DNA of 64,000 bases from Candidatus Micrarchaeota archaeon (GCA_043803815.1 JAZDJR010000029.1:7979-71978), one strand, 5' to 3'. Counted from the stretch's first letter, positions 21,425-51,311 are shown. Translations and numbers: made by a program. Notes: generated from the sequence alone by a model not told the origin.

Positions 21425-21441
21425 TTGCAGGCGGGCAGATT
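21424..21441 (-). repeat. att site (duplicated tRNA-Leu 3' end)
   Basis: Exact match to 51206-51223. Confidence 0.93.
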
Positions 21442-25212: not shown

Positions 25213-25276
25213 AAATTGAGTAAAACCAACCGAAAACGCTTAAAAGCAGGCAGTGAAAGAATTCAGCAGAATGCGA

Positions 25277-25606: not shown

Positions 25607-25641
25607 TCAATTACCTAGTTATATTGCGGTTTTTCCCCTTT

Positions 25642-26568: not shown

Positions 26569-26618
26569 TGTTTTTCCTCCTTTTCATTGGTCGATAGGGT
26601 AAACTGCACATTTTGTTT

Positions 26619-28898: not shown

Positions 28899-28907
28899 GT
28901 TCTCGCC

Positions 28908-29207: not shown

Positions 29208-29391
29208 AATTGAACCACCTCCAAAAAAGTAGTTATAATTCGCCAATCGCAGTCCTTTAAAGCCGGCCAGTGAAAACATTAAGCAGAAACAAAAACAAAC
29301 CCCAAACTAACCATTGATTGGTTAGAAAAGACCGAAAATAACCCCAAACAGGCAAAAGGAGGGCGCTGTACTAACCAAGGCTCCCAAGGAA

Positions 29392-33304: not shown

Positions 33305-36043
33305 ATGGTTTTAAGTCCAAATGAAGTTAGAAGAAGAGCAATTGCGTTTGTTCATGAATGGAAAGATGAAACGCGGGAAAGGGCAGAAGCTCAGACTTTT
33401 TGGAATGAATTTTTTGATATTTTTGGAATTACCCGAAGAAGAGTTGCAACTTTTGAAAAACCAAGCGTTTCAATGCAGGGTGGAAAGGGTTTTATTGACC
33501 TGTTTTGGAAGGGTAAACTAGTTGTAGAACATAAATCGGCGGGACAAAATTTAGACAAAGCTTATTCGCAAGCGTTGGGTTATTTTAGCTCTCTTGAAGA
33601 ATCAGAGTTGCCGGAGTTTGTCATTGTAACGGACTTTAAAAAAATTCGACTTTATGATTTGGATGAGGATTCCCATGTTGAGTTTGAATTAGGTGATTTA
33701 CCTAAAAAAATTAACTTATTTGATTTTATACCTGAAAATCGGCGAGTTATTTATACGGTTGAGGACCCAGTCAACATAAAAGCCGCGGAATTAATGGGTC
33801 GACTGCATGATTCTTTAAAGAAAAATGGTTATCAAGGGCATGATTTGGAAATATTGTTAGTCCGATTAGTCTTTTGCCTTTTTGCGGATGATACTGGGAT
33901 TTTTGAAAAAGATAAATTTCATTTTTTAATTGATAAGAAAACAAATCCTGATGGAAGCGATACTGGCTCAAAGATTATTGAATTGTTTGACATTTTAAAC
34001 ACGTCCGAACTAGAAAGACAACAATCACTTGATGAAGATTTAGGGGTCTTTCCATACATTGATGGGAGTCTGTTTGAAGAACGCATTAAAATCCCATCAT
34101 TCAATAATGAAACAAGGAAAATACTGTTAGACTGTTGCTCATTCAATTGGGAGCTGGTTTCTCCTGCTATATTCGGGTCAATGTTTCAGTCAGTAATGGA
34201 CCAAGAAGAAAGACACAGTCTTGGGGCACATTATACTTCCGAAAAAAATATTTTGAAAACCATTAATGGTCTATTTTTAGAGAATTTGACCAAAGAATTT
34301 GAAAATCACAAAAAAAATAAGCAATATCTAAAGGAAATGCTTATACGAGTCGGTAAAATAAAAGTTTTAGACTCCGCCTGTGGGTGTGGAAACTTCCTGA
34401 TAATTGCATATCGCGAGCTAAGAAGACTTCAAATAAAAATTAGAAAACAACTTGTAAAACTTGAAGGGCGAGAAGGCCAGCAATTAATGAATATTAGCTT
34501 TGACGAAGACTTAAATGTTGATTCAATGTATGGCATTGAATTATTAGAATTTCCGGCAAGAATTGCACAGGTTGGTCTGTGGTTAATGGACCATTTAATC
34601 AATATGGAACTCTCAAAAGAATTTGGTCTTTATTACAAAAGACTTCCTTTAAGAAAGACAGCCAATGTTAAGATTGGAAATGCATTAAGATTGGATTGGC
34701 AAGACTTTGTCCGAAAAGAAGAACTCTCATACATTATTGGCAATCCCCCCTTCGTTTCAAAGCAGGACCGAGACACACCCCAACAGGAAGATATGGACCT
34801 AGTCTGCAAAAATATCGACAATTATGGGCTTTTGGATTATGTTTGCTGTTGGTATATAAAAGCCGCGGAATATATTCAAGGAACAAACATCGGTGTTGCA
34901 CTCGTTTCAACCAATTCAATAGCTCAAGGGGAACAAGCGGGCATCATTTGGTTTTATTTACTAAAACAAAAACAGATTAAAATAAATTTTGCACATCGGA
35001 CATTCAGATGGCATAATGATGCAAGAGGAAAAGCTCAAGTATTTGTAGTCATAATCGGATTTTCACTAAACGATGCTGAAGAAAAATTCTTATTCGAATA
35101 TGAAACTCCAAACTCTGAGCCAATACCCATCAAAGCTAAACACATAAATTCACAACTAATTGACTTTGACGACGTTTTCATTTTTAACAGAAATGAACCC
35201 CTTTGCAGTGTTCCAAAAATATCCTTCGGAAGTATGCCAAACGATGATGGAAACCTCTTATTTACTGCTGAAGAAATGAAAGAATTTATCAAGAAGGAAC
35301 CTGACGCAAAGAAGTTCATTAAGCCATTAATCAGTGCAAAGGAATTCTTGCATGGTGAACAACGATGGTGTTTGTGGCTAAAAGATGCCTCGCCATCGGA
35401 ACTAAACAGATTAACCTTCGTAAAAGAAAGAATTGAAAAAGTCAAGCAATATAGAAAGTCAAGTAAAAGAGAGGCAACGATAAAATTGGCCGAACAACCC
35501 GCCTTATTCGGTGAAATAAGACAACCCAATAGTGATTATATTTTTATTCCGTTGACGACGAGCGAAGGAAGGCACTACATTCCAATGGCATTTTTAACGA
35601 AAAACTACATAGTAAACAACACCTGCAGCATAATACCAAATGCAGAATTGTATCATTTTGGGATTTTAATGTCATCAATGCACATGGCCTGGGTTAGTGC
35701 TGTTTGTGGACGAATGAAAGGAGATTATCGTTATTCTAATAACTTAGTTTACAACAATTTTCCTTGGCCAAAGGAAATTACAACTGCACAAAAGCTACTA
35801 ATTTCTAGGCGCGCAAAAGAAGTTTTAACGGCAAGAGAAAGCTTCAAAGGTTCGACTCTTGCAGATCTTTACAATCCCTTGGCTATGCCAAAAAAACTTT
35901 TAGTGGCCCATAAAAAATTAGATTTAGCGGTCGAAAAATTGTATTCGAAAAAAAAGCTTAAGACTCAATTGGAAAAATTGACTGTTATTTTTGGCAAGTA
36001 TTTGGAATATGAAAAACCTCAGACAAAACTGACTATTTATTAA
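33305..36043 (+). CDS. MmeI-like type IIL restriction-modification enzyme
   Basis: ERAEAQTFW, FIDLFWKG..VEHKS, GAHYTS, LDSACGCGNFL, IIGNPPF, YNNFPWP, TLADLY. Confidence 0.93.
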   Translation: MVLSPNEVRRRAIAFVHEWKDETRERAEAQTFWNEFFDIFGITRRRVATFEKPSVSMQGGKGFIDLFWKGKLVVEHKSAGQNLDKAYSQALGYFSSLEESELPEFVIVTDFKKIRLYDLDEDSHVEFELGDLPKKINLFDFIPENRRVIYTVEDPVNIKAAELMGRLHDSLKKNGYQGHDLEILLVRLVFCLFADDTGIFEKDKFHFLIDKKTNPDGSDTGSKIIELFDILNTSELERQQSLDEDLGVFPYIDGSLFEERIKIPSFNNETRKILLDCCSFNWELVSPAIFGSMFQSVMDQEERHSLGAHYTSEKNILKTINGLFLENLTKEFENHKKNKQYLKEMLIRVGKIKVLDSACGCGNFLIIAYRELRRLQIKIRKQLVKLEGREGQQLMNISFDEDLNVDSMYGIELLEFPARIAQVGLWLMDHLINMELSKEFGLYYKRLPLRKTANVKIGNALRLDWQDFVRKEELSYIIGNPPFVSKQDRDTPQQEDMDLVCKNIDNYGLLDYVCCWYIKAAEYIQGTNIGVALVSTNSIAQGEQAGIIWFYLLKQKQIKINFAHRTFRWHNDARGKAQVFVVIIGFSLNDAEEKFLFEYETPNSEPIPIKAKHINSQLIDFDDVFIFNRNEPLCSVPKISFGSMPNDDGNLLFTAEEMKEFIKKEPDAKKFIKPLISAKEFLHGEQRWCLWLKDASPSELNRLTFVKERIEKVKQYRKSSKREATIKLAEQPALFGEIRQPNSDYIFIPLTTSEGRHYIPMAFLTKNYIVNNTCSIIPNAELYHFGILMSSMHMAWVSAVCGRMKGDYRYSNNLVYNNFPWPKEITTAQKLLISRRAKEVLTARESFKGSTLADLYNPLAMPKKLLVAHKKLDLAVEKLYSKKKLKTQLEKLTVIFGKYLEYEKPQTKLTIY

Positions 36044-36118: not shown

Positions 36119-37837
36119 TTAAACCTGAATGACATTGTCTGCGTATTTTGCATATTTTTCGTCGTGGGACACGAGAATTATTTGCTGCTTTTTTGATATT
36201 TGTTTTAGTAAATTCATCGTGTTTTCGAGCCGGTCTTTGTCAAAAGAGTGAAACGGGTCGTCGAATATGAGTGGAATTGGCTTCCCGGCAAGTTCTTTTG
36301 CCACAATTATCCTGATAGCAATATAAATCTGGTCTTTGGTTCCTTGGCTTAACTGGCTTATTGGGATTGAATTTTTTGTTTTTGGGTCAATTATTTGAAT
36401 ATCGGTAATATCATTGTAGCTTACTTGGGTATACTTGTTTGAAGTAATTTGCTGGAGCAACTCGCCTATTTCTTTGTTTATTTTTGGGGTAAGCTGACTT
36501 TGAAGTTCAGTATACGCTGCTTGGAGGTATTCTGTTGCGGTTTCATACGCCTGGATTTTTGTATTTAAGTCGTTAAGCTGGGCGTCAAATTGTTCTTGCT
36601 TTTCTTTTAATTCAACGGGGTCAGCGTTCATTTCGGCGATGGTTTCGACTTGGCCGCATAGTTTGGAATATTTTTTTTCGAGTGAGGGGATTTCGGTGTT
36701 AAGGGTTTCGAGTTCGTAGAAATGCTCGTCATTGAATGGCTTTGCCGAAAATTGTTCGTTTTGAGTTTTGGCTATTGCGAACTCGTTTCGCGCGTTCGTC
36801 TCTTCCGCGTTGAGTTCTATTATCTTGTTTTTTTTATTTTGAATAAACTGTGTCGGGACGTTCGTTTGGTTAGGTTGGGGTTTTTTGTGTTTTCTGTATA
36901 AATGAATCGCAAGGGGTATCGCGACTATTAACCCGATTATGGTAACCGCGAGTATTAGCGCAAGGATTGCCAGTAAAATATCCATATTGGAAAATTTGGC
37001 TTTTTGCTGGATTATTGGCTGGCTTTCTAATTCTTTTATTTCTTTTTCGAGTTCTTCCTTCTGAGTGGTGATTCCTTTGTATTTTTTTTCAAGCTCTTGC
37101 GCTTTTTCTTCGAGCGCTTTTTTTGTTTTATTTTCTTCGAATGCCGCTTGTAGTTGTTTCTGGCGGGGCTTTTTTTCATTGAGTTGTTTGTCTAAGTATT
37201 CAAGCTCAGCTTGGTGGCCTTTTTTCTTTTCGTGATATTGCTCTACTTGGGGGATTTTTTCGTTTAAGTCATCGAGTTTTTCTTCCAATTCTTGTTTTTC
37301 TTGTTCAAAGCTCTTTGTTTTTTTTGCTATCTTTCGGTCTATTTTTGAAAAAGACTCTTCTTCGGTCGGGGTTTGGTTTAGAAATGCATCGTAAAATTTT
37401 GTTTGCGTATTTTGGTCGTCGATAATTCCGATTTGGTTTTGGGCCACAAAGGTGGTATTTTTGAAGACTTTTTCATCGACTATTCCAAAATGCTTTGCGA
37501 CCATTTGATTTATTTGGTCTTTTTTTTGGGTTACTTTTTTTGTCTTTAATTCAGTAAGTTTATCCGCTTGACTGATATAATCGCGCTCTATGGAAAACTG
37601 TTTTCCATCTAGCAAATATGTCAGTTTGGTTTCACAGGTGGTTTCTTGACCCCAGGATATTAGCGGTTCTATAACTGGGGTTCTTCTGTGAAATACTGCT
37701 GATAACAATGCTTCTAACGTGGTTGATTTTCCGGCTTCGTTTTTTCCAATTATCACATTAAAGCCCGGTTTGAGCAAAATGGTTTTTTTCTTGTCAAATT
37801 GCCGAAAACCTTGGAATTCAAGTTTTTGAAACTGCAT
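36119..37837 (-). CDS. Rad50/SMC-like ABC ATPase with central TM segment (YhaN-like)
   Basis: GKNEAGKST, coiled coil, hydrophobic apex, LSQGT signature, LIFDDPF, VSH. Confidence 0.88.
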   Translation of the reverse strand: MQFQKLEFQGFRQFDKKKTILLKPGFNVIIGKNEAGKSTTLEALLSAVFHRRTPVIEPLISWGQETTCETKLTYLLDGKQFSIERDYISQADKLTELKTKKVTQKKDQINQMVAKHFGIVDEKVFKNTTFVAQNQIGIIDDQNTQTKFYDAFLNQTPTEEESFSKIDRKIAKKTKSFEQEKQELEEKLDDLNEKIPQVEQYHEKKKGHQAELEYLDKQLNEKKPRQKQLQAAFEENKTKKALEEKAQELEKKYKGITTQKEELEKEIKELESQPIIQQKAKFSNMDILLAILALILAVTIIGLIVAIPLAIHLYRKHKKPQPNQTNVPTQFIQNKKNKIIELNAEETNARNEFAIAKTQNEQFSAKPFNDEHFYELETLNTEIPSLEKKYSKLCGQVETIAEMNADPVELKEKQEQFDAQLNDLNTKIQAYETATEYLQAAYTELQSQLTPKINKEIGELLQQITSNKYTQVSYNDITDIQIIDPKTKNSIPISQLSQGTKDQIYIAIRIIVAKELAGKPIPLIFDDPFHSFDKDRLENTMNLLKQISKKQQIILVSHDEKYAKYADNVIQV

Positions 37838-37845
37838 TTTGTCAC

Positions 37846-38931
37846 CTATAGTTTTCCGTCTAGTGCACGTAATCCGATTCGATAGGCCAGTTCTTTAACT
37901 TTCATTTCTTGGCCATTTTTTTCATTTTTTATTGATTCTTGCATTAATCGAATAAATCTGCCGCGAAGGCTTGCGTCCGGAATTTCGTTCATTGGAATGT
38001 GGGTTTGGTCGTTAATTTCCAGGTAAAAATAGTCGTCTTGAAAGTGTTCTACAAGTGAGTCTGCATCAATTTCGGTTGGATTGGCTGGGGTTCCTTTGAG
38101 GGTGAGCCGTAAACTTGTGTTTATGTCCGCATTTTGTTTTAAAATTTCAAATGCGCGGTTTTGATTTTGGGTCAGGTCAATTTCTTCTAGTTTGTACGTC
38201 GTTTCGTTTGTTTTTTGTTTTTGAACTTTTACCGTCTCTTCGGTAGTTTCAACTAGTAAAATATTTGATTCGCCGGCTTGTGAAAAACTTAATGGTTCGG
38301 GAGTGCCGGCGTACCATGCGGGTATTTTTGTGTCTAATTGGCTTGTTTTGTGGAAATGTCCCAATGCGAGGTATGTGAGTCCGCTGTTTTCAATGTCTTT
38401 TTTGTCTATTGGCGCATAGGCTTTTTCTTCTTCTTCAGCCCAGTTAAATTTTGTGTAAGAGCCGTGAACTATCCCGACATTTATTTTTTCCGGTTTTTTT
38501 ACTTCAAAAGCTTTCAGTGGATCCGCATCCGGATTTTGATAATTAAATGCACAGCCATGAATAATCCATTCGCCTAAATCGAAACTTTCCATTTTGCTGT
38601 TGGTAAAAATTTTAACATTGGATGGAAACAAAGAGCAGTCGTATGGATTTTTATCCCCAAAATCGTGATTTCCTGGAACAATAAAGACTGGGATATTCTC
38701 TTTGCGCAATTTATTGAATTCGCTAATTACTGTGTCTATTGTGACTGGGTTTGGAAAACAGGAATCAAATAAATCTCCGCAAATTAACAATGCATCTGCA
38801 TTTTCCTTAATTGAAAAATTTATAATCGTAGAAAAAGTTGTCAATAGTCGTTTTCGTTGTTTATTTGCTTTATTGCCAAGTTTGGAAAATCTGGCGCCTA
38901 AATGCAAATCTCCCGTTTGTACAAAACGCAT
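37846..38931 (-). CDS. Mre11/SbcD-family metallophosphoesterase nuclease
   Basis: DLHLG, GDLFD, GNHD, HG, LGHFH, YAGTPE motifs. Confidence 0.92.
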   Translation of the reverse strand: MRFVQTGDLHLGARFSKLGNKANKQRKRLLTTFSTIINFSIKENADALLICGDLFDSCFPNPVTIDTVISEFNKLRKENIPVFIVPGNHDFGDKNPYDCSLFPSNVKIFTNSKMESFDLGEWIIHGCAFNYQNPDADPLKAFEVKKPEKINVGIVHGSYTKFNWAEEEEKAYAPIDKKDIENSGLTYLALGHFHKTSQLDTKIPAWYAGTPEPLSFSQAGESNILLVETTEETVKVQKQKTNETTYKLEEIDLTQNQNRAFEILKQNADINTSLRLTLKGTPANPTEIDADSLVEHFQDDYFYLEINDQTHIPMNEIPDASLRGRFIRLMQESIKNEKNGQEMKVKELAYRIGLRALDGKL

Positions 38932-39024
38932 ATCGGTCTACCTTCACAGTATACTCCATTTAGAATATCTTAAAAACCAACAAAACTACTCTTCATCGTT
39001 TTCACATTGATTGTATGCCGCTTT

Positions 39025-42000
39025 TTAGTCTCCTTTTGGGCAGTATAATTTGTAGCCGCATTTTTCGCATGTTTTGTCGTCTTGGCTGGGTTCAAAATGG
39101 CTTTTTTGATAGTCTTGGCTGGCTTTTTGGGCGATTTCAAGCAATTCGGCTTGTATTTCTTGGAGCTTTGCAGGGTCTGTGCGGCCGCCGATTTCGGTCA
39201 TGTCGCCTTCAGGGCTTAGGTTATACGTGCGGGGTTTTTCCTGTTCCAGTAGCTCATAGGTTAGGTGTTTGACGGTGTATCCTTTGGCTTTTAGGGTTTG
39301 GTCGTTTTGGACTGCTAGTGCATAGAGCAAGAGTTGGCGTGCGCGCTTTGTTTTGTCGGGTTCTTGGCCGGTTTTGTAGTCGATGATTTCAATTTCATTG
39401 GTTTGCGGGTTTAATTTGTCAATGCGGTCGATTTTTCCTTTGAAGTAATAACCGTCGAGTTTGAATTGGAATCCTTGTTCGACTGAAATGTTATTTTGTA
39501 ATCTGTCGGCTTGTCGGGCCCAGAATGTATCAAATATAAGTTTGGCCCGTGCGTGGTCGATGCGTGAGTAGTCTGGGTGTTGGGCGGTTTGGTGGGCAAT
39601 TGTTTGGAGTTGTTCGCGGCTGGTTATTTTTTGTTGGACTGCAATTTCTAGTGCGCGGTGGATATATTCGCCGAATTTGAGGGCACCGTCTCCTTGGTTG
39701 TCGTTTTGGCGGGTTGGCATTCGTAGGATGTGGGCGAGTTCGTATTTTTTGGGACATTCATCGTAGGTGGATAATGCGGTGAAAGAGAAGGGCGTGTCGG
39801 CGGGGTTAAAGGTTTGGCTGTTAGTGTTTTCATTTTTGGTTTTTTCGAGGATTTGCTGGGCTTCTTGGTTGGCTTTTTGGATTTGGTCTGAATTGGGGTT
39901 GATGGGCTTGCCGGTCAGGGTTGTGTAGGTTAATAAGTGGTGGAATGCTTGGTCTGGGTCAGTGTCGATGTTGGCAATTAAGAGTTTTTTGATTTGGGCT
40001 TTTTGGCGTTCGAGGTCGGTGTCTTTGAGGATGTCGCGGGCTTTGACCTCATTGTCGGTTATGAGTTCAAGGTCGGCGTGGGTTTCGGTTAGACCGTAGC
40101 CGGCTTCGCGTAGGAAAATGGATGGTTCGCGCTCATTATCGGAGTAGGTTTTAGCAAAGCACAGGTTAAGATTTTTTTTCGCGCGCGTGCAGGCAACGTA
40201 AGCTAATCGTCTTTCTTCTTTTTGTTTTTCAGTTTTTTTGAGTTCTTTGATTTCCTCTTTGGCTTCTTTTGGTGATTTCTCTTTGAGAATGGGCGCATAG
40301 CGTTCGTCCAGGGCGTCTGGAATAAGGGGTTCTCGACCACCTCTGGTGAGTGGGAATTTATCTTTTACAAGGTCAAGGATGAATACATGATCGAATTCGA
40401 GGCCTTTGGCGGCGTGACAGGACAAAAGGATGATTCCTTCGTCAGTCGCGAGCTGTTGTGCTTCAAGTTCTTCGCCCATTTCGCCGAGGGTTTCCAAATA
40501 TTCAATGAATTCGAATAATTCTGAGCCGTGAATGTCTTGGAATTTAATAGTCAAGTCGTGTAAGTATCGTAGGTTGAGCAAGGATTGTCGGTTTTCATGA
40601 GTGGATTCGTACGAGAACCAACGTGATAGTCCTGTGCTTTCATAAATATCAAGCAAGAGATTGGAAATGGTTTTGTTTTTGTTTTTTCGTAGCTCCTCAA
40701 TTTTGGCGCTTAAGCGGGCGAGCTTTTCTTGGCCGTCGGAGGATAGTCCAGTTGGGGGTTTGCTGAACAAAACATGTTGAATGCTGTCGTATTTAGCTGC
40801 GTGGGCTAGTATATGGGAGTCAGCATTGCTCAAGCCATATTTGTAGTGCAGTAACTTCCACCAGGCAGGGTCTGCTGCAAAGGTGGGTTTTTCCATATTA
40901 GCAATGACGTAAAGATACGCGAGGCTTGTTCGGATTTCTGGGCATCGAAAAAAGCTGGTGCCGCCTATACTTTGGTATGGGATTCCACGTCGATCTAACG
41001 TATTTTGGATTTCTTGGGCAGATGAATATGAGCGGAATAATATGGCAATTTCATTATATGGCGTGCTGTTCGAATGTACTGTTTCGATTTCCTCGAGAAC
41101 CCGGCGGGCCTGTTCTTTGGGGTCAATCGTTTGCAATAATTTGACTTTGGTGCCTTCGGTTTGAAATGCGGATTCAAGTTGTATGGCTCTGGTCGGGTCC
41201 GAATAATTGTTTTGTACGAGTCGGTGGGCGGTCCGTAGAATTGTGTTCGTCGAGCGATAATTTTGCTTTAAAGCTAGTGTTTGGGCATTGAACTCTTTTT
41301 CAAATGCCTCCAAATTATTGGCATACGCTCCGCGAAATGCGTAAATTGCCTGATTAGGGTCGCCGACAACCGTGATTTTTTTTTGTTCGCCACACAATAC
41401 TTTCAACAAATCGAATTGTTGTCGGTTCGTGTCCTGGAATTCGTCCACAATCACATAATCAAACATTTTGGCCAGTTCTTCTTCGCCGCCTTCGGCTGCC
41501 CAATCAAGTACGCGCTTGTTGAGGTCCGCATAATCCAACAAATTCTTCTCCTCTTTGATTTGTTCATAGGCCGTCCATGCATTCAAAAAATTCGAATAAT
41601 CTTCATATTCCGCAAATAAGTCCAAAAAGTCCCGGAGTTCCTTCTTTTCCAGTTTAGTTTCTCCAGTCGCCCGCTCTAAATGTAATGTTTGAAGCCGAAG
41701 TCTCGCTCTATGAACATATTCTGCCAAATCCGAACCATCTGTCAACTCGTCCACTTGTCTTTTTAAGTCTGTTAAAAACGATTCATACTGTGCGGGCGTC
41801 AAATTCAGGTCTTTGGCTTTTTCTATGCTTGACACATAAAACTTGGCATTGTAAGCGGGAATCCCAAGCCTTCGATGCAACAGAATGGCGGCATCAATTT
41901 CATCCACAATCTGGGCTCCTTCAGTCACGCCCGTTTGCGTTGAATGTGAAACTAGTAAATCGTAACAAAATGCATGAAATGTGCTAGCTGTACTCTCCTG

Positions 42001-42258
42001 TGCTGAAGGTAAAACCTTCTCGACATCTTCCTTCATTTTGCGCGCAGCCTCGCGAGAAAAAGTAAGCATTAATAAACGTCCAGGTATAATCCCTTTTTCC
42101 TTTATCAAAAATGCAGCCTTGGCAGTAATCATCATCGTCTTACCCGTGCCTGCGCCAGCAATGACTAAAACAGAGCCGTTAGTCGATTCAACAGCTTGGC
42201 ATTGTTCGGGATTTAGCTGTTTGCCGGTTTCCGTTTGGAACCATTCAAAAAAAGTCAT
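39025..42258 (-). CDS. UvrD/SF1 helicase fused to a C-terminal PD-(D/E)XK nuclease with Fe-S-type cysteines (AdnB/AddA-like)
   Basis: AGAGTGKT, VDEFQD, VGDPNQAIY, NYRS, HAAKGLEF, YVACTRA; CPKKY...GKIDRID...IIDYKTG...CEKCGYKLYC. Confidence 0.92.
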   Translation of the reverse strand: MTFFEWFQTETGKQLNPEQCQAVESTNGSVLVIAGAGTGKTMMITAKAAFLIKEKGIIPGRLLMLTFSREAARKMKEDVEKVLPSAQESTASTFHAFCYDLLVSHSTQTGVTEGAQIVDEIDAAILLHRRLGIPAYNAKFYVSSIEKAKDLNLTPAQYESFLTDLKRQVDELTDGSDLAEYVHRARLRLQTLHLERATGETKLEKKELRDFLDLFAEYEDYSNFLNAWTAYEQIKEEKNLLDYADLNKRVLDWAAEGGEEELAKMFDYVIVDEFQDTNRQQFDLLKVLCGEQKKITVVGDPNQAIYAFRGAYANNLEAFEKEFNAQTLALKQNYRSTNTILRTAHRLVQNNYSDPTRAIQLESAFQTEGTKVKLLQTIDPKEQARRVLEEIETVHSNSTPYNEIAILFRSYSSAQEIQNTLDRRGIPYQSIGGTSFFRCPEIRTSLAYLYVIANMEKPTFAADPAWWKLLHYKYGLSNADSHILAHAAKYDSIQHVLFSKPPTGLSSDGQEKLARLSAKIEELRKNKNKTISNLLLDIYESTGLSRWFSYESTHENRQSLLNLRYLHDLTIKFQDIHGSELFEFIEYLETLGEMGEELEAQQLATDEGIILLSCHAAKGLEFDHVFILDLVKDKFPLTRGGREPLIPDALDERYAPILKEKSPKEAKEEIKELKKTEKQKEERRLAYVACTRAKKNLNLCFAKTYSDNEREPSIFLREAGYGLTETHADLELITDNEVKARDILKDTDLERQKAQIKKLLIANIDTDPDQAFHHLLTYTTLTGKPINPNSDQIQKANQEAQQILEKTKNENTNSQTFNPADTPFSFTALSTYDECPKKYELAHILRMPTRQNDNQGDGALKFGEYIHRALEIAVQQKITSREQLQTIAHQTAQHPDYSRIDHARAKLIFDTFWARQADRLQNNISVEQGFQFKLDGYYFKGKIDRIDKLNPQTNEIEIIDYKTGQEPDKTKRARQLLLYALAVQNDQTLKAKGYTVKHLTYELLEQEKPRTYNLSPEGDMTEIGGRTDPAKLQEIQAELLEIAQKASQDYQKSHFEPSQDDKTCEKCGYKLYCPKGD

Positions 42259-42989
42259 ACGGTCCCTCTAAAATAATTTTCTAACTTTTTAATTGTTCCA
42301 TATTTTTTGTAGTTATTATTGAACCAAATATCTGAATCTTTGATACTTTTCGCGTAGTCCCATTTTTTCGTGTGAGTTTGCTGGATTATTTTTGCTTCTT
42401 TTGGAAATTCAAAAAAAGATATACCTCTTTTGACGTTTGTAAATCGTTTATAGATTTTTTTATTTAATCTCAAGACCGATGCTGGAACCCAAAAAATACG
42501 CTTTATTTTCCAGCTCGACTTTTTAAACTCGGGATAATCTTCTCTTCCATGAAGAGTAATCAAAGCGGCAAAATCAAATTTTTCATCCCCTTTTTTATTT
42601 TTTGTACCAAACCTCCAACCCCATTGATAAATTCTGCGTTTGAATTTCCACTTTTTATTTCTCTTGATATGCATAAAGTCCTGGTTTGGATAGACTCCCT
42701 CATTTTTCAAAGTTGAAGTTTTTACTTCAATTCTGACTTCCTTTCCTTGGAACTGCAATAGTAAGTCATATCTGTGATGGCCACTTTTGTAATACACTTT
42801 GGCTTTTGGAAATTCACGCAAAAGGAGCTGTGCCACTTGGAATTCCCCATATGTGCCGATAATCGAATTGGCAATTTTTAGACCGGTTTTATCAGAATAA
42901 TTCCTGATTTGGCTAATCAATTTGAGCCCTTTTTTAATTATCTGTTTATTCAGCGGTTTGGGTGCTTCCTTTCTGTTCTTTCTACGCAT
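42255..42989 (-). CDS. PD-(D/E)XK nuclease (restriction endonuclease-like)
   Basis: GTYGE ... YDLL ... IEVKTS. Confidence 0.7.
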   Translation of the reverse strand: MRRKNRKEAPKPLNKQIIKKGLKLISQIRNYSDKTGLKIANSIIGTYGEFQVAQLLLREFPKAKVYYKSGHHRYDLLLQFQGKEVRIEVKTSTLKNEGVYPNQDFMHIKRNKKWKFKRRIYQWGWRFGTKNKKGDEKFDFAALITLHGREDYPEFKKSSWKIKRIFWVPASVLRLNKKIYKRFTNVKRGISFFEFPKEAKIIQQTHTKKWDYAKSIKDSDIWFNNNYKKYGTIKKLENYFRGTV

Positions 42990-43062
42990 CGCTGTTTTCC
43001 CACCTGTAATTTATCAAGTTCAGTATCATTTTTCTTCATTCGTTGGTATTTTTTTCACTTTG

Positions 43063-44448
43063 TTACATCTCAAGTGTTTGTAAAGCTATTTTTCCAATTA
43101 TTTCTGTTAAAGCGTCTTCGAATTCCCGTGATACATCGGATGTCCCGCTTGTGGCGTGGGTTGCTTCGTGCAATAGCACGCCCGCGTATGTTTGCAGGTC
43201 TTTTAGTTGGTCGCGTTGGATTATTATGTTTGGGTAGTCCCATAGTCCGGCTGGTTGGAATCCGTTTGCTTCCAGCCGCATGGTTTCGGTTATTAGGATT
43301 TTTTTTACGCTAGCGGGTTTTCCGCCGATTAGGTCAAGTAATTGCTTCGTTTTTGAAAATATTTCTTGTTCTTTTTGGTTAAGTTGTTTTTCGTCGATGA
43401 ATTTGAATTCGAAGCTTTCGTTGAAGTTTTGGACATATTGGCCCAGATCAATCATTGGGTTGCCTTGGATGTCCTTGACTCCTTGAATTTTTTCTTTAAC
43501 ATTGTCCGGTATCACAATTACCTTGTAACCGTCTTTTTTTGCTTGGTCGATTAGTTCTTTTTTTTCAATGAGTTCGAACGAGGTTGCGAATACAACTTTT
43601 TCAAAGCTGTTAAGCAGTTTGCAGGCGTGGACGGAAACTTCAACTCTGCTTACTTCATCGTGCATTTCCCCTGCTCCGAACTGTTGGAGGTCTTTGACCA
43701 ACTGTTCCGCGACGGGCTTGGTTTGGGATTGTAGCAGTATTTCCATGATGCGGTCGGAATAAGCGGTGCGGCCTACGTTTGAGCGTTCTCGGTTTAATGC
43801 TTTTCGCAATTTTGCAGTCATTGATGTAATATTGTATGAAAAAAGGTAATTTTCTTCAGTCGCTACTTTGAGGCCCGTAATGTAAATGATTGCTTGTTTG
43901 TCTGTTTTTTCGTAAATTTCGCCTAGTTTTGTTTTTTCGAGGATTTTGGATTGGGAAAATTTGAGAAAATTGCTTTTGGCAGCATCCATGTCTTTTTTAC
44001 TGCAGCCTTTTAGGATGATTTCTGTTCCTTGAAAGTTTTTGTCAGCGCTGGATTCGTCGATGATAGCATGGAGTGTTTTGACGTCTTTAAACCCGTGTTT
44101 TTCGAATTTTTGCGTTGTGATGCTTCCATGGCGGGAAATGATTTTGATTTGGATTCCATAGCGGTCAAATGTTGCAAATGCATCTTTGAGGCCGACTCCG
44201 AATTTACCGATGACTTTTTCCGGGTTATTTAGCTTTTCTTGGTTTTCGTTTTGGGTTAAGTGTTTGTAATGAACGCCGCGTCCATAGTCTCGGATATGCC
44301 AACCGTCTTTGTTTTCAAAGATGTCGATTTCTTTAGTATTGGATAGTATTTGTTCATCCATAGCGTTGGAAATGACTTCTCGTATTCCGTCAGCTACGGT
44401 CCAGTTTTCAAGGACCTTTTCAATGTTTAAATCGAATTTATTTTCCAT
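43063..44448 (-). CDS. GHKL ATPase (MPN635-like) fused to a C-terminal HExxH metallopeptidase-like domain
   Basis: REVISNAMDE, IRDYGRG, GKFGVGLK, GT motifs; LLHEATH near the C-terminus. Confidence 0.8.
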   Translation of the reverse strand: MENKFDLNIEKVLENWTVADGIREVISNAMDEQILSNTKEIDIFENKDGWHIRDYGRGVHYKHLTQNENQEKLNNPEKVIGKFGVGLKDAFATFDRYGIQIKIISRHGSITTQKFEKHGFKDVKTLHAIIDESSADKNFQGTEIILKGCSKKDMDAAKSNFLKFSQSKILEKTKLGEIYEKTDKQAIIYITGLKVATEENYLFSYNITSMTAKLRKALNRERSNVGRTAYSDRIMEILLQSQTKPVAEQLVKDLQQFGAGEMHDEVSRVEVSVHACKLLNSFEKVVFATSFELIEKKELIDQAKKDGYKVIVIPDNVKEKIQGVKDIQGNPMIDLGQYVQNFNESFEFKFIDEKQLNQKEQEIFSKTKQLLDLIGGKPASVKKILITETMRLEANGFQPAGLWDYPNIIIQRDQLKDLQTYAGVLLHEATHATSGTSDVSREFEDALTEIIGKIALQTLEM

Positions 44449-44459
44449 GGGGTGTCTCG

Positions 44460-45053
44460 CTATAATCGTGCTATTTTTCCGGCATCGGTTAATTTGTGTC
44501 CGTTTTCGGTTTCCTCGATGAATCCTTTGTCTTTGAGTTCTTTGATTGCGCGGTAGACCATGGCGGGGCTCAATTTAGTCTCGTCTGCGAGTTTGGCGAT
44601 TTGGGTGGAATCTTCGATTCGTTCCAATACCTTTTGTTGGCTGTCGGTCAAGTCGAATGATAATATGGGGATTGTAATTATTTCATTTTTTTCTTCGGTC
44701 ACGTATATTATTTTTTTTATTTTTGTACTTCGTTGATAGCCGGCAAAAAGGACTCCAAAGCTTTGAGTGCGGCGACCGGTTGATACATTTAGGTAAATTT
44801 CGTCCCCGTTCGGAACCATATCAATCATATCTGTTACCGCGTGTGCAACGGAAACGATTTCGTATACGGGTACTTTTTTTTCTTTTATTTCGATTATTTT
44901 TTCATAGTGTTCTTTAATTGTTTTTATTGCGGCTTGCTGTTTGTCGTCGGTTTCAGTGCTTGAGAGCAGGTAAACCCGATCAATGGAAAAGCGATTGATG
45001 GCCAAAACAATTGAATCAGTCCGGTATACGGGAGTAATTAGCACTCTTGCCAT
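44460..45053 (-). CDS. CARF-HTH transcriptional regulator (Csa3/DUF6293-like)
   Basis: RVYLL, IYLNVSTGRR CARF motif; C-terminal wHTH ...LKDKGFIE...LTDAGKI. Confidence 0.85.
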   Translation of the reverse strand: MARVLITPVYRTDSIVLAINRFSIDRVYLLSSTETDDKQQAAIKTIKEHYEKIIEIKEKKVPVYEIVSVAHAVTDMIDMVPNGDEIYLNVSTGRRTQSFGVLFAGYQRSTKIKKIIYVTEEKNEIITIPILSFDLTDSQQKVLERIEDSTQIAKLADETKLSPAMVYRAIKELKDKGFIEETENGHKLTDAGKIARL

Positions 45054-45097
45054 GATGAACTAGTAACTGTAACCGTTTATAAATATTTGGAATTGTA

Positions 45098-45128
45098 TAC
45101 TGAAAAAGAGGTTTTCTACTGAAAAAGA
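45098..45128. promoter_or_regulatory. 12-bp direct repeats in the divergent promoter region
   Basis: TACTGAAAAAGA at 45098-45109 and 45117-45128, between oppositely oriented TATA-like boxes. Confidence 0.5.
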
Positions 45129-45182
45129 TACTTTTTTAATGATTTTGATACTCCTTCTTGCTAAAATCAAGGGGTTGAATGG

Positions 45183-45471: not shown

Positions 45472-45855
45472 ATGCCAAATCGAAATGAGCATATTGTCCT
45501 TGGTTGCCTTCTTGCTGGCGGCGCTTATTTGCTATTTAAACGAGTTGTTAATGAAAAACCGACTTGGGGCGGATTGATAACCTCGGTGGCTGCCGGTGGT
45601 GCAATTGGACTTCTTCCAGACTTATTAGAGCCTGCTACTAACCCAACTCACAGAAATTTTTTTCATAGCGCTCTTGCTCTTGGAACCGGGACGTATGGCA
45701 CTTATAAAGTTCTTCAAAACCCGCTCTTAAATCAAAATCAAAAGCAGTTTCTCTTGGCATTGTTTGCGGGATATGCCAGTCATTTACTAGCTGATGCAAC
45801 AACCGCGCGCAGTATTCCACTCCTTGGAGTTGGTGAAGGATATGGGGAATACTAG
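45472..45855 (+). CDS. YdjM-like membrane metal-dependent hydrolase
   Basis: MPNRNEH, LLPDLLE, HRNFFHS, GYASHLLAD. Confidence 0.85.
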   Translation: MPNRNEHIVLGCLLAGGAYLLFKRVVNEKPTWGGLITSVAAGGAIGLLPDLLEPATNPTHRNFFHSALALGTGTYGTYKVLQNPLLNQNQKQFLLALFAGYASHLLADATTARSIPLLGVGEGYGEY

Positions 45856-46318
45856 TCGCGGAGAGTCCCGAAGCGGGAGTTCGTATAGTCGAACAAGTGG
45901 CTTTGGCTTGTCAGGACAAACAATTGCCATTACTCGAAGAACACTTAAAAATGAAACGCCTACCGAAGCGGGGACTTTTGTTGCAGGCGTAATTCTCCAG
46001 GGAACCGGAATTGACCTTCTTTTATCAGTTTATCAGGCCGTGGTTTATTCTTATGATAAATACCAAAAGTTCGAAAATCGGTCCTGGGTAGTTGGGGAAG
46101 AACAAGCGCTTCAAGAGATTTCAGTCGAAGTTGGAAAAGATGCCTTAAAAAGCACAGTAAAAAAAATGGCTTCTCAAGCTATCGTTAATGCGGTTGTAAC
46201 TGAGTTGGAGGAAAAAAAGATTATTCCGCCTGAATTGAAAAACCGGACAGAAGAAATAGTCGATGACCTCATTGATTTGGGCATTGATAAATTGGAGAAA
46301 CAATTTTTAGAGGAGTGA
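45842..46318 (+). CDS. Hypothetical protein with Gly/Ser-rich N-terminus (MGNTSRG...), candidate QatB-like partner
   Basis: GGTGA RBS before ATG 45842; low-complexity N-terminal tail followed by helical body. Confidence 0.7.
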   Translation: MGNTSRGESRSGSSYSRTSGFGLSGQTIAITRRTLKNETPTEAGTFVAGVILQGTGIDLLLSVYQAVVYSYDKYQKFENRSWVVGEEQALQEISVEVGKDALKSTVKKMASQAIVNAVVTELEEKKIIPPELKNRTEEIVDDLIDLGIDKLEKQFLEE

Positions 46319-46322
46319 AAAA

Positions 46323-46607
46323 ATGGGTCAAATAAACACGGATGATTTATTGTTCAAGGCCACGTATGCCACTCTTATCAAACAAGCGCAGCATATGTTG
46401 AACACTAAAGAGTTTGCTGAACGATTCAAGCTAAAAACCCGTGAAGAAAAAATTGAAATAAAAAAGAAAATGCTTGAAAAGCTAAAAGGGTACGCCGTTG
46501 AAATCGTGCAACAGTTGCCTGAAAATGTTGAAGGGGGCCAGGATATCCAAAAGCTGAAGCCAAAGCTGATAAAAATAATGCAAGGGTGTCTTGATGGCCA
46601 AGCTTGA
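46323..46607 (+). CDS. Small helical hypothetical protein (MGQIN...)
   Basis: GGAGTGA RBS, overlaps the QueC-like gene. Confidence 0.7.
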   Translation: MGQINTDDLLFKATYATLIKQAQHMLNTKEFAERFKLKTREEKIEIKKKMLEKLKGYAVEIVQQLPENVEGGQDIQKLKPKLIKIMQGCLDGQA

Positions 46608-47808
46608 ACACTATTTTACCCGTTTTTCGGAGATAAGCAAGTTTTACAAAGAAAGGAAAGGAAAATACGCGGCTGAAAAAGTTATTCCGCCGAGGCAACG
46701 GGACCTCACTAAATTTGTAGAAAGGGTAAACTTTCTGGAAAGGGACGATTTTCAAAATGAAATGGAATTTGAGTGTATTGATTATGATTTTTGGGAAAAA
46801 CAAAAACCATTACTAAAGAGCTTAATTGAAGATATTGTTGAACGGCCCGTCGAGTTAAACCTTAAAAAAATCCAAGATCCTTTTAAAAAATCAAAATGGG
46901 GCGTCCAACCTGCCGGAAAAGCACCCCTCGTTCTTTTTTCCGGCGGACTGGACAGCTTTCTTTCAGCGTATGAAAATCCAAACGCAGTCCTGGTGCATGT
47001 AAATATTGCCAAGGGAATGCACCCGTATGCAAAAAAATCAAGAGAATTTTTACCTTTAACCCAACCCTACTTTGAGATATCATTTACAGCTTACAAGCCG
47101 CCAGCAAAGGCGGGCGGTGTGTCCAGTTGTCGCGGTCTAACCTTCATCTGCCTAACTTCACTGCTAATTCCTGCATTTAATGCCGACCGAATAATAATCG
47201 GGGAAAATGGAATCCTAATCCATAACCCGCCGTTATTCGAAGGCGCCAAAATGACACGAGGGCTGCGTCCAACAATTACCTCAAAAATTGAACAACTGCT
47301 TTGCCAAGTCTATGAAAAAAAGATTAATTTGGAGTTTCCTAATAACAGCCTCACAAAAACCCAAGTAATCGAAAAAATCATGAAAACCCCCCCTTGGCCA
47401 GAAATACTGCCAAAAACAAGCTCCTGCTTTCATCAGCAACCGCATAGGGGAATAAAGAAAAAAATTCCCATGTGTGGCGTATGTTACGCCTGTATTGTTC
47501 GTCAACTCGGAACCCTTGCGCTCGGAGTAGACGAGTCAAAAAACTATTTAAAAAATCCTTTCAAAGAATGGGATTCAAAAGGAAACGGGCTAATGTTTGT
47601 GATTGACTTATGCCGCCTAATTAAACTCTACAAAAAAGGGCTGCTTTCAGTAAACCAAGCCAATATCATCCTGCAGAACAAGGCTCTTTTTGAGCGCTAT
47701 TTTGACGAAGTCCTTAAGGGTCTCAAGGAGGCACAAGCGCGAAAACTAACAGGAGACTTCGTTGATAATGAAATTGCAGAACTTGCGAAGCTTAGTCCTT
47801 TCTGCTGA
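46594..47808 (+). CDS. QueC-family PP-loop protein, QatC-like
   Basis: LFSGGLDS, IGENGILIHNPP, TR..RP, LTKTQV, TSSC, CGVCYACIVR; ~404 aa, much longer than tRNA-pathway QueC. Confidence 0.85.
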   Translation: MAKLEHYFTRFSEISKFYKERKGKYAAEKVIPPRQRDLTKFVERVNFLERDDFQNEMEFECIDYDFWEKQKPLLKSLIEDIVERPVELNLKKIQDPFKKSKWGVQPAGKAPLVLFSGGLDSFLSAYENPNAVLVHVNIAKGMHPYAKKSREFLPLTQPYFEISFTAYKPPAKAGGVSSCRGLTFICLTSLLIPAFNADRIIIGENGILIHNPPLFEGAKMTRGLRPTITSKIEQLLCQVYEKKINLEFPNNSLTKTQVIEKIMKTPPWPEILPKTSSCFHQQPHRGIKKKIPMCGVCYACIVRQLGTLALGVDESKNYLKNPFKEWDSKGNGLMFVIDLCRLIKLYKKGLLSVNQANIILQNKALFERYFDEVLKGLKEAQARKLTGDFVDNEIAELAKLSPFC

Positions 47809-48414: not shown

Positions 48415-49773
48415 TTATTTTTTATTTTTTTGTTTGATTGTTTTTTTGGGCGGGGTTTTCCAGTAGCCGCCTTTGTCTGGGCCAATTCTTTTGAGACTGC
48501 CTTGTTTTTTTAGGTTATTGATTTGCCATTCTATTCCTTTGGGGCTTATTCCTGTTTTTTTTGCCAGTTCATCGGTCGTTATTCTTGGCTGTTCGATTAT
48601 TAGGTCCACTATTTTCTCCCTAGTTTTCTCCCTAGTTTTCTCCCTAGTTTTCTCTTTGGGGTTTTCTTTGATTTTTGGTCTTTGAAAGGTCACGGTAAAA
48701 AATGTGGTGAATTCGAATTTTGGTTCTGGCAGTCCCGCTTCTTGCATTGCTTTTCGTATTCGGGCGATGCCGGAGCCGGCGTGTTCGACTAGATTGCTTT
48801 GTTGCAATAGTCCGAATAGGAGCGGGTTTCGGGATAGGCTTCTTTTTCCGAAGTCGCTTTGTTTGATGATGAGGCCGCCGGGATTTGATATTTCGACGCG
48901 GTTGTCGAAAACGTCTATTTGGGTTACGGCTCCTTTTTCGCTGTAGTCGCGGTGGCAGAGCGCGTTGATAATGGCTTCTTTGAGGGCTTCTTCGGGAATT
49001 TCGAGTATTTCTTTTCGGGGTCCAAATCCCTTTATTTCGTAGCGAAGTTTTAGGGTTCGGTACAAAAACTTGGATGTTTCGTTGTAATTGGAAACCGTGT
49101 CGTTTTTGAAGTCTTTTTTGTCAATGATGAGTGCTTTGTCGGTTCCTTTGTAGGTAATGCAGGTGATGATGCTTTGGGGGATGAACTTGGAAGGGTTTTT
49201 TCCAAAGAAAAGGATGGCTGCGTTTTTGAATTGGTTTTTTTGGTTTGTCAAACCCAAATTGTAGAATAGGTCTTTTTTTGGAATGGTTTTGGATATGCCA
49301 GCTTTTTTTAAAAACTCGTTGAATCGCTTTGTGTCAAAATCCTTCAAGGCAAAATCGGGGTTTATCATTTCTTCATACAGTATTTTTCCCTGTCGGTTAA
49401 AAAGTTCCCGTATTTCTTCGACTTCAAGTTTTTGGGAAGTGGAACCAATTCGCAAATAGAATCCTTGCGTGCAACGGTGCGGTTTTCGGTCGCTTTCCGG
49501 GACTGTGATAATAAGGACTTTTTTGAATTCTGAAATCTTGATGGAAATTGGCGGGTCGCAACTTCGAGCAATACTGTGGGCATCGGCCTTCAACCGGTTG
49601 GTAATATTGATTCCTTTGATTTTGTTGTCATCACTTACTCCGACCAGAATATCGCCGCCTTCGGCATTGGCAAAAGCCACGAGGTCTTTTTCAATTCCGT
49701 TCAGGTTTTCCTTGAACTCGCTTCGATAATCCTCGCCCTTTTTCAGGATAAAATCAAAGGTCTTTTTTTCCAT
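48415..49773 (-). CDS. Schlafen/AlbA_2 + HATPase-like + wHTH protein
   Basis: EFKE...LVAFANAEGG, EAIINALCHRDY, ISNPGG, RNP, GSGI, RIGPDKGGYW. Confidence 0.88.
   Translation of the reverse strand: MEKKTFDFILKKGEDYRSEFKENLNGIEKDLVAFANAEGGDILVGVSDDNKIKGINITNRLKADAHSIARSCDPPISIKISEFKKVLIITVPESDRKPHRCTQGFYLRIGSTSQKLEVEEIRELFNRQGKILYEEMINPDFALKDFDTKRFNEFLKKAGISKTIPKKDLFYNLGLTNQKNQFKNAAILFFGKNPSKFIPQSIITCITYKGTDKALIIDKKDFKNDTVSNYNETSKFLYRTLKLRYEIKGFGPRKEILEIPEEALKEAIINALCHRDYSEKGAVTQIDVFDNRVEISNPGGLIIKQSDFGKRSLSRNPLLFGLLQQSNLVEHAGSGIARIRKAMQEAGLPEPKFEFTTFFTVTFQRPKIKENPKEKTREKTREKTREKIVDLIIEQPRITTDELAKKTGISPKGIEWQINNLKKQGSLKRIGPDKGGYWKTPPKKTIKQKNKK
48612..48654. repeat. 12-bp tandem repeat encoding (KTRE)n
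   Basis: TTTTCTCCCTAG repeated about 3.5 times, in frame. Confidence 0.85.
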
Positions 49774-51140: not shown

Positions 51141-51207
51141 CAAATCACGTCTCCTTTTACCCAACCGAAAACCAATTAAAAGAGACGGATTCAAACAATT
51201 TGGTAAT

Positions 51208-51311
51208 TGCAGGCGGGCAGATTCGAACTGCCGAAAGCCACTAAGGCACAAGCCCATTGACCGTTGATACGGGCCTCAAGCTTGCGAAATTGACCGCTAT
51301 TCGACGCCTGC
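51208..51311 (-). tRNA. tRNA-Leu(GAG) with a 19-nt intron (51255-51273); integration target
   Basis: GCAGGCG/CGCCTGC acceptor, CAAGC/GCTTG stem, long variable arm, canonical BHB (TTGA/TCAA, CCGT/ACGG). Confidence 0.93.

Follow-up and report, generated by a model that had tools for sequence, protein, structure and literature searches.

In Bacillus subtilis, the Rad50-like protein SbcE (YhaN), described in 2009, possesses a central domain that is hydrophobic, insoluble and devoid of a CxxC motif; its partner is SbcF (YhaO), and that report places the pair in double-strand-break repair and competence, with polar localisation (PMC2811018). In Sulfolobus, the regulator Csa3a directly activates the promoters of nurA-mre11-rad50-herA and of SMC-like genes (PMC5587795). 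UvrD-Cas4-like fusions form one clade, have restriction-modification (RM), Schlafen-HTH and MORC genes as neighbours, and are proposed to be ancillary parts of several defence systems (PMC5704561). Meanwhile, the Tiamat-type GHL ATPases carry an inactive Wss1-like fold and act with PD-(D/E)XK domains or with neighbouring helicase-nucleases (10.64898/2026.09.30.754977). Proteins resembling these parts are encoded side by side at positions 36119-45053 of a 64,000-nucleotide stretch from a Candidatus Micrarchaeota archaeon (GCA_043803815.1, JAZDJR010000029.1:7979-71978; the whole stretch is termed the window here). This six-gene run is cargo of an integrated element and a one-off mosaic of separable modules, for which regulated degradation of foreign DNA is the role favoured here.

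All six open reading frames (ORFs) are situated on the minus strand and, in the order of transcription, encode proteins of 197, 461, 244, 1077, 361 and 572 amino acids, with gaps of 11, 73, -4 (an overlap), 93 and 8 bp. The first gene, at 44460-45053, encodes a Csa3-like regulator with a CARF domain and a winged helix (PADLOC PDLC01849, TIGR01884, HFX_2341_N). It is followed at 43063-44448 by a gene for an MPN635-family (PF25856) protein, recognised from its motifs, AlphaFold model and annotation, in which a GHL ATPase is joined to a Wss1/SPRTN-like zincin, and at 42255-42989 by a gene for a rare restriction-endonuclease-like PD-(D/E)XK protein (motif alignment and fold match). In the product of the largest gene, at 39025-42258, a UvrD-type superfamily 1 (SF1) helicase is joined to a PD-(D/E)XK nuclease of the Cas4/AddB type that contains four cysteines (Pfam, motifs). 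The run ends with a Mre11/SbcD/SbcF(YhaO)-like phosphoesterase at 37846-38931 (Metallophos, with all metal-binding motifs) and an SbcE/YhaN-type Rad50-like ATPase at 36119-37837, which has a hydrophobic apex and no zinc hook (Pfam, motifs). According to a check of sequence motifs and of the alignments of relatives, the catalytic motifs are intact in all enzymes of the run.

The full set was searched for in 81 loci of the MPN635 family, 25 of the Mre11/YhaN pair, 62 of the 244-residue protein and 16 of the CARF regulator, as well as in 214 genomes of the phylum, and was found in none of them. Three sub-blocks do recur, namely Mre11 with YhaN (21/25), the GHKL gene with Mre11/Rad50-type genes (7/81) and CARF with a UvrD-nuclease (6/16), and for this reason chance alone does not explain the run. 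It is a one-off mosaic of separable modules and not a conserved six-gene system. A preliminary description of this DNA had pictured one dedicated system; the recurrence of sub-blocks preserves part of that picture, and the absence of the full set from the loci and genomes searched removes the rest. Its more elementary statements hold: the ORF coordinates show six co-oriented genes with gaps below 100 bp, profiles and motifs reproduce each of its domain calls (CARF-HTH, GHKL-HExxH, PD-(D/E)XK, helicase-nuclease, Mre11 and Rad50-like), and the likeness it saw to the AdnAB/AddA, YhaO/YhaN and MPN635 families is confirmed. Both peculiarities that it singled out, a GHKL ATPase ending in a HEATH zincin motif and a hydrophobic segment replacing CxxC in the Rad50-like ATPase, are real and are traits of the respective families. 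It had also matched the combination with no named system, and PADLOC 2.0.0 agrees, since the six genes correspond to no system model and yield generic component matches only (GajB, LmuB, mad3). In the literature, no described defence system joining SbcCD-like and UvrD genes was found, the supplementary files of the cited papers lying outside the search. The parts are thus of known kinds; what is new is their combination, the fact that within one archaeal order a Csa3-type regulator is wired in cis to nuclease cassettes, and the repeated association of the little-studied MPN635 family with unrelated nucleases.

The 461-residue protein contains the Bergerat motifs E24xxxN28xxD31, D54xGxG and G81xxGxG and, at residues 427-431, the HEATH motif; across 29 aligned relatives, none of the Bergerat motifs varies, nor does H427, E428 or H431. 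In its AlphaFold model (mean predicted local distance difference test, pLDDT, 88.5), residues 8-261 match the GHL ATPase-plus-transducer unit of T6 topoisomerase II (Z 12.0) and those of ParE, MutL and MORC2 (about 11), and the best Foldseek matches of the same residues are to Hsp90 (E 8e-11). A linker connects this unit to residues 350-461, which match Wss1 (5xbn, Z 8.8, root-mean-square deviation 3.1 over 104 residues; 5ln5, Z 7.8) and SPRTN (6mdx, Z 7.8), with weaker matches to YbeY and abylysin. In sequence searches, Pfam returns only a weak HATPase_c_3 match, and the family profile finds only weak gyrase B N-box matches in the PDB. The name PF25856 is taken from precomputed annotation, which assigns it to this protein and its relatives; in the Atlas clusters (score 0.99), MPN635_N is present in 75-97% of the members. 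As to Tiamat, which unites a GHL ATPase, DUF3684 and a NOV_C/PD-(D/E)XK domain in one protein, the weak HATPase_c_3 match is the only Pfam correspondence and no PADLOC family is hit, PADLOC 2.0.0 presumably including a Tiamat model. A co-folding run of this protein with the Mre11-like protein scored 0.31 against a mark of 0.32, without controls, and speaks neither way.

The MPN635 family numbers 4644 relatives or more, drawn from both archaea and bacteria, with sources in Nanoarchaeota, Aenigmatarchaeota, Bathyarchaeia, Nitrososphaerales, Clostridia and Anaerolineae, and it also occurs on 15 IMG/VR contigs. Many relatives are about 460 residues long and 55-61% identical to the protein of the window, the closest (P0089, encoded on a 14.2-kb contig) being 89% identical. 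Species-representative genomes contain at least 533 loci of the family; neighbourhoods were examined in the best 80 of them, together with locus L003. These 81 neighbourhoods are mostly unrelated to one another, and nucleases are their recurrent element. Mre11-like and Rad50/SMC-like genes stand beside the MPN635-family gene in 7 of the 81, which come from Nanoarchaeota, Aenigmatarchaeota, Nitrosopumilus, Bathyarchaeota, Anaerolineae and Solirubrobacterales. Five of these loci (L014, L018, L024, L039 and L050) show the order Mre11, ATPase, GHKL with gaps down to a 4-bp overlap; in L045 the Mre11/ATPase pair is located downstream, and L035 has an SbcC-like gene that overlaps the MPN635-family gene at its start. 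Furthermore, paired paralogous Holliday-resolvase-like endonucleases precede the gene in 7/81 loci, RmuC lies beside it in three and a DUF559-type nuclease in one, while RM enzymes, AIPR, OLD-type, Schlafen and RAMP genes are found among the other neighbours. A co-oriented neighbour within 150 bp is missing upstream in 39/81 loci and downstream in 54/81; the gene usually stands alone but recurs beside nucleases. Apparent decay is seen in L003, where it is split into two ORFs (1439-2837), and in L050, where it is fragmented (about 10001-11374). In L002, the neighbours of the MPN635-family gene show no similarity to the CARF and 244-residue proteins of the window. The literature search, again with the supplementary files of the cited papers outside it, found no description of the pairing of this family with nucleases; a single open paper names MPN635, one time, and the family is almost unstudied.

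In the case of the last two genes, the phosphoesterase matches Metallophos at 1.8e-15 and carries DLH at residue 8, GDLF at 52, GNHD at 87 and GHFH at 191. The Rad50-like protein matches AAA_23, SMC_N and AAA_27 (PF13514, 31 bits against a cut-off of 22), and with GKNEAGKS at 31, LSQG at 496, LIFDDP at 523 and SHD at 557 its head is of the YhaN type. A hydrophobic stretch at 287-305 occupies its apex (about 283-310), and its only cysteines are at 68 and 394, which leaves it without a CxxC hook. Among 86 database relatives, 83 show one or two hydrophobic segments in their centre; among the full-length relatives in the examined loci, 19/19 contain such a segment and none contains CxxC. Canonical archaeal Rad50 does not fit, the best NCBIfam equivalog score being 86.1 bits against a cut-off of 700, in addition to the missing CxxC. 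Lamassu is represented by an LmuB match alone (4.6e-21), with no LmuA or LmuC match among the six genes.

An alignment-based scan places the Mre11-like gene directly upstream of the YhaN-like gene in 21 of 25 loci, and the remaining four end at contig edges; the pair is a self-contained, mobile two-gene cassette. A compact archaeal subfamily of about 365 + 575 residues, with 38-42% (Mre11) and 32-34% (ATPase) identity to the genes of the window, is found in varied contexts in Nanoarchaeota, Aenigmatarchaeota, Pace- and Woesearchaeota, Methanoperedens and Methanobacteriaceae. The nearest relative of the Rad50-like protein among 5.8 billion proteins is 29% identical. Close YhaN-like relatives occur in 0 of the 214 other phylum genomes, with distant matches in just four, and a scan of genome contigs with the Rad50-like protein alone gives one distant match. 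The 93-bp spacer before the Mre11 gene contains a T-rich tract followed by a TATA-like stretch, so the cassette may keep a putative promoter of its own. In L111 (8894-15163), Mre11/YhaN-like and UvrD-nuclease genes are each broken into several ORFs. After the archaeal cassette, an unannotated protein of about 490-530 residues is encoded in L092 (4555-6039), L093 (11699-13303) and L097 (11740-13332); in L092, where it is located after the MPN635-family gene, it has no Pfam match, and it is a possible further partner.

The 1077-residue protein matches UvrD-helicase (2e-60), UvrD_C (1.9e-49) and PDDEXK_1 (1.7e-31), with a Walker A motif at 35, IDRID at 943 and DYKTG at 960, and its four cysteines are Cys835 and C1064xxC1067x5C1073. 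Full-length relatives, 35-39% identical, occur in 5/214 other phylum genomes. It is no AddA or RecB equivalog (addA_Gpos 161 bits against a cut-off of 707.65; recB 129.3 against 696.05), and no AddB-like gene is present in the run. As for Gabija, GajB models match the helicase (1.3e-68), GajA models cover only the P-loop of the Rad50-like protein, its first approximately 45 residues, and a search for a TOPRIM domain came up empty.

The stop of the 244-residue gene overlaps the helicase-nuclease start by 4 bp. A word-based homologue search returned nothing for its product, and HMMER found only 10 relatives among 1.84 billion representatives. Within these 10, D75, E88, T91, S92 and K95 are invariant, E49 and V89 are nearly so, and position 90 is lysine in 8 and arginine in 2. 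The model (pLDDT 80.8) resembles EcoRV, I-Ssp6803I and NhoI in Foldseek, with weak matches (E 2e-4 to 3e-3, template modelling score 0.3-0.55). With its acidic and lysine catalytic residues and a restriction-endonuclease-like fold, albeit weakly matched, the protein belongs to the PD-(D/E)XK superfamily. A metagenome scan yielded 62 loci of the family, in which one distant UvrD-like and one CARF-like gene were seen and no Mre11, YhaN or MPN635-family gene; since these loci share no conserved neighbour, the 4-bp overlap with the helicase-nuclease is specific to the locus described here.

The CARF protein matches the PADLOC CARF3 model over its full length (PDLC01849, E 1.5e-60), is placed in the NCBIfam Csa3 family (TIGR01884, 85 bits, cut-off 60.2) and, in Pfam, matches HFX_2341_N (1.5e-14) together with a winged helix-turn-helix. 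Relatives 34-69% identical exist in 18 of the 214 other phylum genomes, all of the same order. Within the 16 loci examined, a UvrD-PDDEXK gene is located within about 10 kb of CARF in six. In L215 and L219, CARF, a GmrSD_N protein and the UvrD-PDDEXK gene form tight operons, continued by an OLD-type gene in L215 only. In L212/L189, the closest CARF relative (69%) heads a GmrSD_N gene, a large methyltransferase gene and an SNF2-PLD gene, with a helicase-nuclease about 9.4 kb away. In L190 and L225, CARF is oriented opposite to an M16 peptidase gene, a Schlafen/HATPase_c_4 gene and a helicase-nuclease gene, and in L191 the UvrD-PDDEXK gene lies about 7 kb downstream of a fragmented CARF-like gene. 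A Schlafen/AlbA_2-HATPase_c_4(-HTH) gene accompanies CARF relatives in L158 (2643-4333, directly after the CARF-like gene), L225 (7177-8547) and L190 (6758-8251), as it does in the window at 48415-49773. The sole link of this CARF subfamily to CRISPR observed in the 16 loci is in L218 (6891-10105, genome G051), where a 50%-identical CARF-winged-helix protein is encoded 210 bp from a divergent Cas10 (HD, Csm1_B and palm2). The association with CRISPR-Cas or with a cyclic oligoadenylate synthase that characterises Csa3 is not seen in the 85.6%-complete host genome.

The region upstream of the CARF gene contains, at 45093-45151 (minus strand), two to three direct repeats, each approximately 19-20 nucleotides long, with the core CTTTTTCAGTA present twice, 19 nucleotides apart. 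Between them and the gene, a TATA-like TTTATAAA at 45076-45083 is centred about 27 nucleotides before the start codon, the repeats lying just upstream of it. The exact 11-mer core has only two occurrences in the window, both within the repeats; with one mismatch allowed, five matches are found against 2.66 expected. Judged from the sequence, it is plausible that the repeats and TTTATAAA are a candidate operator and the promoter of a leaderless transcript.

An exact 18-nucleotide direct repeat, ATTGCAGGCGGGCAGATT, is present at 21424-21441 and 51206-51223, the latter copy within the 5' end of a tyrosine integrase gene (49941-51257, minus strand, profile match), and matches of this length are expected by chance between the two searched zones at about 7e-4. 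The copies are probably the attachment sites of an integrated element. They enclose about 29.8 kb with the operon, an RM gene and genes resembling a type IV secretion system (T4SS), namely VirB4-like, PrgI-like and T4SS-pilin genes at 22996-29279. G+C content is reduced at 30-50 kb of the window. Given the integrase and T4SS-like genes, the repeat and the G+C drop, the six-gene block belongs to the cargo of an integrase/T4SS-like element that measures roughly 30 kb. It occupies the integrase-proximal part, between an MmeI-type IIG RM enzyme convergent with the operon (33305-36043, plus strand; Pfam, PADLOC) and a Schlafen/AlbA_2 protein with HATPase_c_4 and HTH domains (48415-49773, minus strand; profile matches), and an ArdC-N/M78 gene is among the surrounding genes. 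The host assembly measures 1.08 Mb in 36 contigs and is 85.6% complete; for its small-subunit (SSU) rRNA, on another contig, the archaeal model gives 1408.8 bits and the bacterial model 1091. Since relatives of the CARF protein, the helicase-nuclease and VirB4 are likewise present in genomes of the same order, the contig fits a small-genome (DPANN-type) archaeal lineage. In another genome of this order (G140; locus L222, 11591-14673), relatives of VirB4 (54% identical) and PrgI (40%) are located about 7 kb from a CARF relative.

Taken together with the observed gene order, domains, catalytic motifs, folds, recurring sub-modules and mobile-element context, the operon is read here as serving the regulated degradation of foreign DNA, in defence or in competition between elements, with a probability of about 0.5. 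Destruction of foreign DNA is favoured by the patchy distribution of the parts, their mobile context, the defence-island company of the modules and the published readings of UvrD-Cas4 and Tiamat-like proteins. In such a scheme, the Csa3-like regulator would bind the direct repeats before its own gene, a small ligand setting the transcription of the operon. The MPN635-family protein would close on DNA as a GHL ATPase clamp while its zincin acts on DNA-bound proteins, the small PD-(D/E)XK enzyme would cut the DNA, and the UvrD-Cas4-like enzyme would unwind and degrade it from nicks or ends. The membrane-anchored SbcF/SbcE-like complex would open blocked or hairpin ends near the membrane, and the net outcome would be the destruction of incoming foreign DNA. 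In this scheme, each activity, the ligand and the cooperation between the parts are predictions. The ligand-regulated DNA-degradation defence of the preliminary description is thus kept in its defensive sense, which the context favours, and abandoned as a single dedicated system; the other role it offered, processing of element DNA for transfer in place of a relaxase, gains no specific support.

Several observations weigh against this reading. The host genome, at its 85.6% completeness, yielded neither Cas10 or Cas1 nor an SMODS cyclase or a CRISPR-like array, which leaves the CARF ligand with no visible source. Because the six-gene set was not found elsewhere, joint function has no backing from conservation; likewise, none of the 81 MPN635-family loci contains a relative of the CARF or 244-residue protein of the window, and the 62 loci of the latter family show no conserved neighbour. 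The genomes behind the 16 CARF loci are akin, so the CARF counts are not independent. PADLOC 2.0.0 has no family match for the 461- or the 244-residue protein. The only tested relative of the Mre11/Rad50-like pair, SbcEF of B. subtilis, acts in break repair and competence and not in defence (PMC2811018). Finally, L050 has its MPN635-family gene behind a repair operon of the canonical NurA-HerA-Mre11-Rad50 kind.

The last two points lead to the main rival, which is nonetheless judged unlikely: the operon would be a toolkit for DNA repair and processing in a reduced-genome host or in an element in transfer, providing break resection, removal of DNA-protein crosslinks and a membrane anchor beside a T4SS-like channel. 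Besides L050, it is supported by the gathering of SbcE and SbcF at the competence pole of B. subtilis and their part in break repair and transformation (PMC2811018), and by the match of the zincin domain to the crosslink-repair proteases Wss1 and SPRTN (Z 8.8, 7.8 and 7.8). A Bacillota locus (L107) unites Mre11, YhaN-like and AddA-like genes, tblastn detects no other Mre11, Rad50, NurA or HerA in the host genome (85.6% complete), and the operon shares its element with the VirB4, PrgI and pilin genes. The parts are, however, very patchy among relatives, which is unusual for housekeeping repair, and their neighbours elsewhere are mostly RM, GmrSD, OLD, AIPR, Schlafen and Cas10 genes. Moreover, VirB4 and pilin relatives accompany 0/10 loci of the approximately 570-residue archaeal Mre11/YhaN subfamily, and the only T4SS link, at the CARF locus L222, occurs where these nucleases are missing.

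Ranking next, and rather improbable, is the explanation that the six genes have no joint function, having been inserted successively at one hot spot as independent cargo, co-oriented by chance and working alone or in pairs. This would agree with the failure to find the full set elsewhere, with the many MPN635-family genes that lack a close co-oriented neighbour (39/81 upstream, 54/81 downstream), with the 244-residue family having no conserved neighbours, and with the T-rich and TATA-like spacer, from which the Mre11/YhaN cassette may have its own promoter. It sits poorly with the tight spacing (three gaps measuring 11, 73 and 8 bp, and one overlap of 4 bp), with the fact that each of the six genes regulates or acts on DNA, with the CARF and UvrD-nuclease combination in 6/16 loci, and with the pairing of GHL-zincin and Mre11/Rad50-type genes, which is found independently in at least five lineages. 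A fixed, dedicated new six-gene system with its parts in one complex would have only gene packing and complementary activities in its favour and is very improbable, given no recurrence in 81 + 25 + 62 + 16 loci or 214 phylum genomes.

A more specific and speculative proposal concerns the MPN635-family protein, and it is put forward as a long shot. The protein might be a very widespread and hitherto unrecognised nuclease-licensing factor, in which a MutL-like, ATP-driven DNA clamp carries an active Wss1/SPRTN-type protease that clears DNA ends or adducts of bound proteins, such as terminal proteins or end-protecting inhibitors, for partner nucleases. In this locus, it would cooperate with the membrane-anchored SbcEF-like complex, the UvrD-Cas4 enzyme and the small endonuclease under the ligand-sensing Csa3 regulator, destroying protein-capped incoming DNA at the membrane.

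Other genes of the window deserve mention in their own right. Divergent from the operon, a block formed by 45472-46607 and 46591-47808 may be a further cargo module, perhaps related to 7-deazaguanine; the 405-residue protein encoded at 46591-47808 has a weak QueC-like match (8.3e-6) and comes after a gene for a YdjM-like membrane protein and a pair of small ORFs. Just beyond the left repeat, a HEPN and nucleotidyltransferase pair, resembling MNT/HEPN toxin-antitoxin modules, is present at 20354-21369, next to an ORF containing NUMOD3 at 19329-20357. At 5534-7219, this archaeal contig encodes a long RelA/SpoT-type protein (HD_4, RelA_SpoT and TGS), and in L190 a short RelA_SpoT-domain gene (3033-4154) is located about 570 bp from the CARF relative.

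Compared with the Csa3a regulon of Sulfolobus islandicus, the locus shares the coupling of a CARF-winged-helix protein to helicase-nuclease, Mre11/Rad50 and SMC-like genes. The Sulfolobus regulator is encoded at a CRISPR locus and acts in trans (PMC5587795), whereas in this locus its counterpart heads the operon, and the host genome yielded neither cas genes nor an array. DPANN-type archaea in which no CRISPR system is seen thus have nuclease cassettes with Csa3-type regulators attached in cis. With the UvrD-Cas4-like fusions of the pfam12705 branch (Hudaiberdiev et al. 2017), the 1077-residue protein has in common the SF1 UvrD helicase and the Cas4-type nuclease with its cysteine cluster, the mesophilic archaeal source, and neighbours of the RM, Schlafen-HTH and GHKL/MORC types; the likeness is one of domain content. 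It differs from them in its position, after a small PD-(D/E)XK gene and before a Mre11/Rad50-like pair, and in having a CARF regulator instead of the WYL regulator described there (PMC5704561). In the case of SbcF and SbcE, the report describes the same adjacency of a Mre11/SbcD-like gene and an SMC/Rad50-like ATPase gene, the same AAA_27 head and the same hydrophobic central domain lacking a CxxC hook (PMC2811018). The ATPase of the window has 572 residues instead of about 960, and is archaeal and carried by a mobile element.

Tiamat and Tiamat-like proteins resemble the MPN635 family in combining a GHL ATPase with a Wss1-like metalloprotease fold and in having PD-(D/E)XK or helicase-nuclease partners (10.64898/2026.09.30.754977), and the likeness of their ATPase to sacsin is echoed by a weak NF047352 match of the 461-residue protein. 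In contrast to Tiamat as there described, this protein is far smaller and lacks DUF3684, a TPR-like region and a fused nuclease; the HExxH motif is intact in it and invariant in the MPN635 family, whereas the fold of Tiamat is called inactive. The MPN635 family therefore looks like a much smaller relative of the Tiamat-like design with an intact metal site. Its significance reaches beyond this genome, as it pairs a topoisomerase/MutL-type ATPase with an intact domain resembling crosslink proteases and repeatedly adjoins unrelated nucleases. If this link with nucleases is functional, proteolysis on DNA coupled to nuclease action might be a common step in microbial DNA defence or repair.

In the MutL-MutH-UvrD excision machinery, a GHL ATPase clamp works with a UvrD-type helicase and with a PD-(D/E)XK nuclease resembling restriction enzymes. 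These three activities are also predicted for the locus, by analogy only, since it has no MutL C-terminal domain and no MutS, and the sequences are unrelated beyond the fold (Z 10.9-11.0). Set beside these described systems, what seemed a new six-gene system becomes a mosaic of known module types, in which neither the membrane-anchored Rad50-like protein nor the HExxH tail is any longer odd.

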